Of a DNA stretch of 64,000 bases, positions 22,233-59,795 are shown in pieces. The notes below the pieces were generated by a model. That model was given only the letters and a program-made list of their open reading frames with translations. It was not told the origin of the DNA and did no database searches. The DNA is from an uncultured Acidobacteriota bacterium. Its GTDB lineage: Bacteria > Acidobacteriota > Thermoanaerobaculia > UBA5066 > DATFVB01. Made by a program: the position numbers and the translations under genes. Where the stretch lies: NCBI GenBank assembly GCA_963813155.1, contig CAWEYG010000005.1, positions 192,001 through 256,000 on the forward strand, read 5' to 3'. Numbering within the stretch: the first letter of the stretch is position 1; each line of letters starts with the position of its first letter.

Positions 22233-22421
22233 TTGACAGCTCTCGTTTTCGGTCAGACGACCGGTTGCATCGGGTTGTTCATCCTGATCGTCGACATCCT
22301 CTGCATCATCCAGATCGCGGAGGCGAGGAAGTCGACGCTGAAGAAGGCACTCTGGATCGCCTTCGTCGTTCTCTTCCCCGTCCTGGGGGCGCTGATCTGG
22401 CTGCTGCTCGGAAAGAAGTGA
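22233..22421 (+). CDS. PLDc N-terminal domain small membrane protein
   Basis: AGGAGG then TTG; KALWIAFVVLFPVLGALIWLLLG motif. Confidence 0.8.
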   Translation: MTALVFGQTTGCIGLFILIVDILCIIQIAEARKSTLKKALWIAFVVLFPVLGALIWLLLGKK

Positions 22422-22435
22422 CGGGCGGGTCGCCC

Positions 22436-22457
22436 GTCATTCCCGCGAACGCGGGGA
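22436..22457 (+). repeat. REP-like palindrome, left part (interrupted by IS30)
   Basis: GTCATTCCCGCGAACGCGGGGA, completed by TCC on the far side of the IS. Confidence 0.85.
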
Positions 22458-23447
22458 GGTGGATTCACATTTGAAGTGCAACAGATGAGAGAAGACCTCG
22501 GCCGGGGTTTGGAAGTCAAGGCATTTCCTAGGTGTGTGATTGTAGAGTTGGGCAAGGCGGAGGATTTGGCTCGTGGGAAGGACTGCCAGGTCGGTTTTTC
22601 GGGGGAGGAAGCGACGAAGCCGGCCGATGGCATTTTCGACTCCGCCCTTCTGCCAAGGAGACCGTGGATCGCAAAAGAATGTTTCGACTCCGAGGGTTTT
22701 CCCCAGGCGGTGATGGAAAGCGAACTCGGTTCCGTTGTCGAAGGTCACGGTGCGGCGCAGGGACGGGGGAAGAGGTCGCAGAAGATTTTCGATGGTAGAG
22801 ACAAGAGGTGCGGCGGCCTTGCTTTGTTGACGCAGGATAACCGTCAGTCGAGAAGTACGTTCGTGAAGGGCCAAGACGGCCTGCCCATAGGTGGCAAAGA
22901 GCATGAGATCGGCCTCCCAATGGCCAGGGTTGGTTCGGTCACTGGCTTCTGGGGGTCGCAGAGCAATGGGGACACGGTTTTGGATGTGCACGGTCGAGTT
23001 GCCGTGTTTTGGGGAGCGTCGGCCGCGCTTGCTCTTGCCGCGGGGGAGGTAGAGCCGCCAGGAGTAATCCTTGGTGCGAGCGATCTGAGCGGCGATGAAG
23101 CGATAAATGGTTTCATGACTGACAACCGGCCGGCCTTCTTCGCGCGCGAGCCTGCCGGCGACCTCCTGCGGCGACCATCCCTGACTGAGGCGGTCCAAGA
23201 CCAGAGCCTGGAGGTCGGGCCGACGCAACAGTTTGCTGCCGGTCCAGCGCCGTGCCTTGGCCTGTTGACCGGCGTAAACGGGCTGATACCCGCCCGACGT
23301 CGTGCTGTTGCGCTTCAGCTCCCGAGCAACGCTCGATGGCGCGCGATCCAGACCTGCCGCGATTTGCCGGATCGATTGCCCGGCGCAGCGACGCCGGGCA
23401 ATCTCACACCGTTCCTGGATCCCAAGCTGCCCGTATTGGCGCCCCAT
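22437..23447 (-). CDS. IS30-family transposase
   Basis: HTH SIRQIAAGLDRAPSSVARELKRN; GHWEAD, TFDNGTEF, SPWQKGGVEN, PRKCL. Confidence 0.96.
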   Translation of the reverse strand: MGRQYGQLGIQERCEIARRRCAGQSIRQIAAGLDRAPSSVARELKRNSTTSGGYQPVYAGQQAKARRWTGSKLLRRPDLQALVLDRLSQGWSPQEVAGRLAREEGRPVVSHETIYRFIAAQIARTKDYSWRLYLPRGKSKRGRRSPKHGNSTVHIQNRVPIALRPPEASDRTNPGHWEADLMLFATYGQAVLALHERTSRLTVILRQQSKAAAPLVSTIENLLRPLPPSLRRTVTFDNGTEFAFHHRLGKTLGVETFFCDPRSPWQKGGVENAIGRLRRFLPRKTDLAVLPTSQILRLAQLYNHTPRKCLDFQTPAEVFSHLLHFKCESTSPRSRE

Positions 23448-23494
23448 CGCAGCACCCCCATCAGAAGGTGTTGCACTTCGTTTGTGAAATCAAA
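22458..23494 (-). mobile_element. IS30-family insertion sequence (1037 bp)
   Basis: Imperfect 26-bp inverted repeats (22458-22483, 23469-23494) ending GAAGTGCAACA; GGA direct repeats at 22455-22457 and 23495-23497; lower GC than flanks. Confidence 0.93.
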
Positions 23495-23535
23495 GGATCC
23501 CTCTCGTATCGACTTCGGAAAAAAACCACCTGAGC

Positions 23536-23585
23536 GATCCCCGCTTTCGCGGGGATGACGACGTCGTCGTCTGGGGGATGACGAC
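23536..23585 (-). repeat. Inverted partner REP plus a partial copy
   Basis: GATCCCCGCTTTCGCGGGGATGAC (23536-23559), then a partial GGGGGATGACGAC. Confidence 0.85.
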
Positions 23586-23592
23586 TTCGTCG

Positions 23593-59771: not shown

Positions 59772-59795
59772 GTCATTCCCGCGAAAGCGGGAATC
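59772..59795 (+). repeat. Intact REP-like palindrome
   Basis: GTCATTCCCGCGAAAGCGGGAATC, same family as the IS30 target. Confidence 0.85.

Follow-up and report, generated by a model that had tools for sequence, protein, structure and literature searches.

IS30-family elements that appear to home into one position and one orientation of a CGTC-tagged hairpin repeat

A 64,000-nucleotide stretch of DNA from an uncultured Acidobacteriota bacterium (GCA_963813155.1, contig CAWEYG010000005.1, positions 192,001 to 256,000; hereafter the window) contains a 1037-bp insertion sequence (IS) of the IS30 family at 22458-23494, flanked by a 3-bp duplication, GGA (22455-22457 / 23495-23497). The element splits a short hairpin repeat, and its transposase gene has no stop codon until it reaches that repeat. 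Comparison of the related sequences makes it very probable, in our judgement, that this is an active member of a widespread clade which homes, in a single orientation, on one defined position of CGTC-tagged hairpin repeats of the NTS/SRM type, as this type of repetitive extragenic palindromic (REP) sequence is called in passages of the literature on the Ssn nucleases (PMC11893778). An earlier reading of the window (the original prediction) had proposed an IS30 subgroup with specificity for a REP and for its orientation. This proposal held for all seven copies in the genome and for 78 of the 84 insertion sites overall, none of which is reversed. The features on which the argument rests are the following, in window coordinates.

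22434..22457, plus strand: interrupted hairpin repeat, comprising the CGTC-AT head, both stem arms and the loop, up to the first duplication copy
22437..22457, minus strand: six codons (SPRSRE) and TGA of the transposase frame, from the repeat
22437..23447, minus strand: transposase frame, 336 aa; HTH_38 at 6-47, rve core at 174-264, D180/D237/E271
22455..22457, no strand: target-site duplication, copy 1 (GGA), read from the sequence
22458..22482, minus strand: right inverted repeat, adjoining the transposase 3' end; encodes ..LLHFKCEST, no stop
22458..23494, minus strand: IS30-family insertion sequence, 1037 bp; seven copies listed at 100% (rounded) over 1-1037
23470..23494, minus strand: left inverted repeat, upstream of the transposase start
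23495..23497, no strand: target-site duplication, copy 2 (GGA), read from the sequence
23495..23502, plus strand: tail of the interrupted repeat (last stem bases and unpaired tail)
23536..23559, minus strand: intact inverted repeat copy, doublet partner; pattern search, 0 mismatches
59772..59795, plus strand: intact solitary repeat copy; pattern search, 1 mismatch

The two halves of one repeat stand on either side of the element. The plus strand reads CGTCATTCCCGCGAACGCGGGGA at 22434-22457 and resumes with GGATCC.. from 23495; GTCATTCCCGCGAACGCGGGGA occupies 22436-22457, and the C directly before it gives a CGTC head. The unpaired CGTC tag (22434-22437 in the window) sets the orientation of the repeat. 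Excision of 22458-23494 together with one GGA yields exactly the restored repeat string given in the original prediction, and both the inverted doublet partner and the intact member at 59772 were recovered by pattern search. The pattern proposed at that time has three matches in the window, against none in 100 shuffles. The duplication sits in the tail-side arm of the hairpin stem, and the whole hairpin with its GTCA head stays beside the 3' end of the transposase gene.

The sole long frame in the element block runs on the minus strand from 23447 to 22437 and has no stop inside the element. The last codon of the element is ACC (22458-22460); the six codons of the flank, TCC CCG CGT TCG CGG GAA, add SPRSRE and are followed by TGA at 22437-22439, which is the complement of TCA in the GTCAT head of the repeat. 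The repeat thus supplies the last six codons and the stop, as had been predicted. The product matches the transpos_IS30 profile NF033563 over its full length (positions 1-267 of 267) with 238.7 bits against a cut-off of 80, which places it in the IS30 family. Residues 6-47 match the helix-turn-helix (HTH) domain HTH_38 with 48.4 bits, above its cut-off of 27. For the rve core at 174-264 the score of 27.4 bits falls short of the 32.6 set by Pfam; the same core is covered by NF033563, and it is modelled with a predicted local distance difference test (pLDDT) score above 90, the mean for the whole AlphaFold model being 87.7. D180, D237 and E271 are invariant or nearly so in an alignment of 59 sequences. 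In the IS30 family 33 residues lie between the second D and the E of the catalytic triad, and the same number separates D237 from E271 here.

The other family characteristics are in line with this assignment. IS30-family elements measure about 1.0-1.25 kb, with one frame, inverted repeats of 20-30 bp and a duplication of 2-3 bp; the present element has 1037 bp, its relatives have 1028-1040 bp, and its duplication is 3 bp. Its terminal inverted repeats are imperfect: two arms of 20 nt (22464-22483 and 23469-23488) are 85% complementary, and 18 of 25 positions match, by eye, when the repeats are followed out to the tips of the element.

The element occurs seven times in the genome assembly (3.81 Mb, 23 contigs, 90.8% complete), and every copy is listed at 100% identity (rounded) along its full 1037 bases. 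All seven interrupt this one kind of repeat at an identical base and point the same way within it, rather than lying in unrelated targets, and the sequence beyond the 28-bp repeat is unrelated between copies. The left flank always ends in ..GCGAT[T/C]C, and the right flank reads T[T/C]CCCGC, a four-base loop, GCGGG[G/A]A and TGAC. The frame tails are SPRSRE (three copies), FPRARE, FPLSRE, SPRSRG and SPRARG, each following its own hairpin, and in every copy the stop is the TGA of the repeat head. The 3-bp duplication is identical on both sides in five of the seven. In the remaining two (C8:20215-21251 and C1:492239-493275) its middle base varies, with TTC on one side and TCC on the other; this instability could be due to polymorphism of the repeat, gene conversion or an effect of the repair step. 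A search with head plus hairpin found 20 repeats in the genome, of which seven run into an element end and 13 into their own tail TCGC.., so that 35% are occupied. Three of the seven occupied repeats have an inverted partner within about 60 bp. The abundance of REPs assumed in the original prediction is not borne out in this genome, with only 20 copies, seven of them occupied.

By its sequence features, namely a (C)GTC head, a stem, a G-rich loop of four bases and a tail, the repeat can be placed in the CGTC-tagged REP super-family treated by Di Nocera et al. 2013 (PMC3733652). GTCA precedes all 20 copies in this genome, with a C before it in ten, and GAC is invariant in 69 of 69 related targets. 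In our own comparison the rebuilt window repeat matches the NTS string CGTCATTCCCGCGMAVGCGGGAATCYRG as published at 25 of 28 positions, and so does the copy at 59772; one mismatch concerns a stem base, and the others are all in the tail. Tails read ..ATCGC.. in this genome (..GAATCGC.. or ..GGATCGC.. at other copies) and ..AATCCAG, as in NTS, in most other hosts of the clade. NTS is described, in the relevant passages of Chenal et al. 2025 (PMC11893778), as the hairpin that is bound and cut by the single-strand nucleases SsnA, and it contains the dRS3 of Neisseria. PF01797, the profile for the REP-associated tyrosine transposase (RAYT), has no match in this genome and has matches in 6 of 14 control genomes; the head of the repeat is GTCA and not the GTAG of RAYT-associated REPs. 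A small ssnA-type GIY-YIG gene was not found with PF01541 in this 90.8% complete genome, the single match lying in a 727-aa open frame. In soil metagenomes (runs X3 and X7), many contigs join two inverted copies of the repeat through 20-36 unrelated letters beginning with AATCCAG, and NTS-type doublets appear, from these contigs, to be common in those samples.

The insertion habit is shared by a large group of relatives. In a scan of one genome per species 577 relatives were detected, of which the best 80 were analysed; they are labelled Chloroflexota/Dehalococcoidia, Nitrospirales, Alpha- and Gammaproteobacteria and Binatia, with one metagenome-assembled genome (MAG) of the Verrucomicrobia. 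A hairpin with at least 6 of its 7 pairs adjoins the element at 54 of these 80 loci and provides TGA at codon 7; at six others the hairpin is weaker and TGA is likewise present. Ten loci have the hairpin without TGA at codon 7. Nine of these ten carry a CGAC head and one a TGGC head; the nine are labelled alphaproteobacterial, except for one Verrucomicrobia and one Nitrospirales MAG. Neither hairpin nor TGA is found at nine loci, and at the last one the flank is too short, which leaves 79 usable loci. The related loci and the seven copies of this genome together give 84 sites with both flanks. Of these, 69 have strong hairpins; by our own reading of the remainder, nine have partial or decayed hairpins and six have no hairpin at all. 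The reversed side of the hairpin is not used at any of the 84. A logo of the 69 distinct targets is informative solely over TGGA-TyC-CCGC-nTnC-GCGGGaA-TGACG, the outer flanks carrying about 0.1 bit per position. The duplication is identical in 70 of 77 related loci, and all six insertions outside a repeat show a clean 3-bp duplication with the same element boundaries. The habit is thus kept in relatives at 50-86% protein identity, in hosts labelled from at least six phyla. The genome of the window itself appears, from the label of a homologue of 84% identity, to be of the Thermoanaerobaculia. In an unpublished sister genome, G002, elements of 84-85% identity adjoin such a hairpin at all four visible 3' ends. 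In the plasmid collection no relative of at least 60% identity was found, the best plasmid-borne one reaching 44.2%, and this search yielded no ISfinder-style name.

Two cases among the related loci deserve separate mention. In a Dehalococcoidia genome record (L077, OZ240240.1) a copy outside any repeat reads into the downstream gene, giving an open frame of 788 aa. Loci L027 and L029, from MAGs labelled Hyphomonadaceae and Oleiharenicola, which belong to different phyla, hold elements that are 99.9% identical and followed by the same 45 bases, with different upstream flanks; this similarity could reflect a binning error, a chimeric contig or recent transfer.

The same picture emerges from the proteins. 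In a collection of 5.8 billion proteins 7438 of the 8000 scored candidates reach E <= 1e-30, and tails were counted in the best 120 homologue clusters (67-99% identity). Beyond the last residues that the inverted repeat contributes (..CEST, ..CDST and similar), 115 of the 120 have exactly six more, and the other five have 10-36. All 120, like the seven genome copies, read through the end of the element, which excludes that an indel error hides an internal stop. The original prediction had also specified a tail of the form x-P-x-x-R-[E/G]. Among the 113 six-residue tails caught by the anchor pattern 88 have this form; the other 25 do not, 13 of them reading x-R-x-x-P-x. The tail types FPLSRE, CRLSPA and PRLSPG are those expected from a seven-base stem, a four-base loop and a complementary stem that change in step. 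Among the representatives at 50% identity 17 of the 150 listed proteins match the repeat-encoded end, and 16 of these add exactly six residues; full-length matches with this end extend, among the matches listed, down to 51-59% identity. Neighbours of full length that are no more than 49% identical have ends such as ..VALQT, ..VALEM and ..CCTSN. Judged from these protein ends, the neighbouring IS30 clades (proteins P0131-P0270) look as if their genes end in the GTTGCAC.. word of the inverted repeat as well, translated in the two other frames and stopped within the repeat.

Could the hairpin be part of the element instead of its target? The element would then be a longer IS with a 3' hairpin and stop of its own, and the solitary repeats would be remnants or miniature derivatives. 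The hairpin does lie at the same end in every copy of this genome, as this explanation requires, but the hairpins differ among copies whose bodies are listed as 100% identical, and for this reason the hairpin is the target and not cargo. The repeat halves and the 3-bp duplication flanking the element, the solitary repeats without element ends and the common boundaries of the six insertions outside repeats all argue in the same direction. Public metagenome contigs agree with this. Run X1 contains 90% of the sampled words and is possibly the source sample. One of its contigs, of 508 nt, represents the empty site: it joins window position 22455 to 23497 with one letter between, skips 1041 bases and agrees with the right flank at every position over a further 304 bases. 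In the same run a 54-nt contig spans the occupied left junction, and a collapsed contig of 1039 nt coincides exactly with 22457-23495. Other contig joints, from 22455 to 23535-23540 (20-36 letters between, sides of 20-24 nt), were set aside as deriving from other doublets or organisms and not from this locus. In a further sister genome, G001 (78% complete), the repeat is matched at least 11 times, and a search for the element detected none. We therefore consider it very unlikely that the hairpin travels with the element. Still less credible is an origin of the copies by duplication or recombination of a larger segment without targeted transposition. Two copies on contig C1 do lie 2.5 kb apart in the same orientation, but the flanks beyond the 28-bp repeat are unrelated at all seven sites and at the 69 distinct related sites. 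These two copies (492239-493275 and 495778-496814), each in its own repeat, bracket one open frame of about 830 codons, a layout like that of a composite transposon.

A more serious alternative concerns the reason for the bias. According to the original prediction, the element cannot complete its gene without its target; activity would then be confined to copies that acquire the six codons and TGA, and the orientation bias would be the result of such selection. No clade member examined has a stop of its own, TGA is present at codon 7 in 60 of the 79 usable loci, and the predominance of six-residue tails among the homologue clusters can be read in the same way. However, the ten CGAC- and TGGC-head hairpins give no stop at this position. 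In one alphaproteobacterial MAG three copies (L048, L056 and L058) add 8, 218 and 65 residues, yet are 99.9-100% identical, which suggests recent movement. The added residues track the hairpin sequence, none being conserved in its own right, and residues 323-336, beyond the last helix (which ends at 322), are predicted to be a disordered coil, with pLDDT below 50 at 326-330. Selection for activity would, moreover, leave reversed copies behind as dead ends, yet there are none among the 78. Dependence on the target therefore seems doubtful to us, and that part of the original prediction could not be upheld. Targeted insertion into the repeat, with a stop that is most likely a tolerated by-product and probably not a requirement, remains the preferred reading. 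Because the frame overlaps the end-binding site and the element nearly always lands in the same sequence, the stop could be lost at no cost.

According to this preferred reading of targeted insertion, movement would follow the copy-out-paste-in route of the IS30 family, by analogy with its other members, and the transposase would read the target as double-stranded sequence. Translation runs through the right inverted repeat and ends at the TGA of the repeat head, six codons out. The context A-TTC-CCGC occurs on both sides of the hairpin, preceded by CTGG on the tail side and by CGTC on the head side, and all 78 repeat-associated insertions are on the tail side. Since the stem arms are mutually complementary, the orientation would have to be read either from the loop or from the three or four unpaired bases of the tail, which are TGGA in most hosts. 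Continued into the first bases of the stem, this tail spells TGGATTC, which is also the tip of the right inverted repeat of the element, read inward; the chance of a shared 7-mer between the 12-nt tip and the 28-nt target is about 1-2% by a rough hand estimate. The end-binding domain may dock on the repeat by means of this likeness. Such docking is a reasonable mechanism, as IS30 targets its own inverted repeats and palindromic hot spots; a preference of IS30 for nearly palindromic hot spots, and also for its own inverted repeats, is described in passages of PMC9333248. The repeats may serve as harmless intergenic landing sites, an intergenic position being established for the copy in the window.

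One may go further and propose that the clade has turned the own-inverted-repeat targeting of the IS30 family into homing on a host repeat, docking through TGGATTC, and that it competes across phyla with the Ssn nuclease for the same 28-bp motif. In the passages of PMC11893778 on recognition, the base just after the palindrome is the most important one for SsnA binding; each insertion parts this base from the hairpin and may thus switch off one Ssn site. We offer this extension as a speculation that is, on balance, improbable.

Several observations weigh against active homing as set out here, or at least do not come to its aid. Two of the seven duplications in the genome differ at the middle base (TTC vs TCC). 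The empty-site allele of run X1 has A where both duplication copies have G, so that it represents a neighbouring allele, distinct from the one into which this copy was inserted. In G001 and G002 the orthologous intergenic regions lack both this repeat and the element, and hence offer no empty site with an intact repeat and no test either way. Transposition of the element was not observed, the evidence consisting of assembled contigs, and no joint of right end to left end (a circle junction) is listed among the assembled contigs of the public runs. In this genome the repeat tail resembles the tip of the inverted repeat less closely, reading GCGATTC in place of TGGATTC. Finally, the absence of any own stop in the clade and the six-residue tails in 115 of 120 clusters would also fit selection for the arrangement.

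A few further features of the locus were recorded. Both sister genomes keep the flanking genes and differ in intergenic content; the region of G002 orthologous to 22422-23592 (G002:C273:1648-1750) has a different inverted hairpin pair with a GTCAT-type head, which suggests, from this comparison of sequences, turnover of repeat families at one site. Towards its 5' end, where it encodes the HTH region, the transposase gene contains a perfect 12-nt inverted repeat with a 6-nt spacer (23374-23385 / 23392-23403). A 9-bp stem, TGACGGGCG / CGCCCGTCA, at 22419-22439 has one TGA at each end on opposite strands, namely the stop of the plus-strand gene (22419-22421) and the borrowed stop of the transposase (22437-22439). 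This stem is the single terminator-like match in a scan where 1.7 are expected by chance, which makes it uninformative, and a promoter scan found no promoter-like site. The RNA fold of the 3' end has z = -3.3; in the structure of lowest energy it is the neighbouring hairpin that is paired, not the repeat. A contig of 298 nt from the metatranscriptome run X7 (23048-23345, no differences, depth 2.6) was rejected as evidence of transcription, DNA carry-over being possible.

The element brings together in one family, IS30, three subjects so far known separately: REP-targeting insertion sequences, stops borrowed from the target and the hairpins of the NTS/CGTC type, recently recognised as sites of nuclease action. 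As a natural DDE (Asp-Asp-Glu) transposase that selects a single base and a single orientation within a 28-bp site, the enzyme lends itself to the question of how such enzymes read their targets, and it is possibly a starting point for site-directed insertion tools. For annotation, the arrangement accounts for the constant calls of 336 aa in some hosts and for long nonsense tails or fusion frames in others, of which the 788-aa frame at L077 is the longest.

Compared with the known members of its family, IS30 of E. coli and IS1655 of Neisseria meningitidis, the element has the same layout, with an N-terminal HTH and a DDE core in one frame that fills an element of about 1 kb, and it shares with them the terminal inverted repeats and the duplication of 2-3 bp. 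Unlike these two, it has a genomic repeat family as its target, at one base and in one orientation, and a frame without its own stop. The frame of IS30 ends inside its right inverted repeat. IS1655 is tabulated near REPs in only 2 of 13 and 2 of 6 copies in the part of PMC1525189 that lists it. The REP habit itself is shared with IS1397 and ISKpn1 (IS3), with IS621, ISPpu9, ISPpu10 and ISPa11 (IS110) and with ISRm22 (IS4). These differ in family and chemistry and are single-species cases, as opposed to a clade across at least six labelled phyla; for ISPpu9, seven copies in REPs are mentioned in PMC12288879. The sections of Tobes and Pareja 2006 (PMC1525189) on the families concerned report REP targeting for IS3, IS110, IS4, IS256 and IS5, not for IS30. 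What they define there as a 'type 1 association' describes the present case, with seven of seven copies in the repeat and an empty-site contig for the locus.

Frames that are open at the element end and closed by flanking DNA are described for IS870 and ISMt1 (both with the target CTAG) and for IS1547, IS1110 and IS1239 in passages of PMC13630536. According to these passages, IS870 takes TAG from its 4-bp target; in the present element a tail of six codons, fixed in length, and TGA are drawn from a 28-bp hairpin. IS1239, as described there, takes whatever follows and so acquires variable tails, in contrast to the fixed tail found here. IS1239 is itself a member of the IS30 family. The word IS30 does not occur in PMC13630536.

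With respect to the repeats, dRS3/NTS is a known integration site of filamentous phages (in the relevant part of PMC11893778). The parts of Di Nocera et al. (PMC3733652) on mobility describe CGTC repeats as lacking a dedicated transposase, with only fortuitous associations with other transposase genes. No link to IS30 is made in these parts or in the main text of the Ssn paper as available, from which the word 'IS30' is absent. Relative to typical NTS/CGTC repeats, those of this genome differ in the tail ..ATCGC.., in their number of 20 and in that no small GIY-YIG gene was found with PF01541. The original prediction could not say whether REP targeting had been described for IS30; we found no description of it in the literature, nor of an IS30 clade in these repeats, although ISfinder entries and the supplementary lists of IS-REP associations and NTS genes could hold one. 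As far as the published descriptions and the sequences compared here indicate, other IS families provide known cases of REP targeting and of stops supplied by the target, and neither was found described for IS30. The feature is genuine, lies well beyond chance expectation and makes mechanistic sense. It varies systems of known kinds and does not amount to a new kind, and its attraction lies in its constancy across phyla, its exact orientation and the overlap of its target with the Ssn recognition site.

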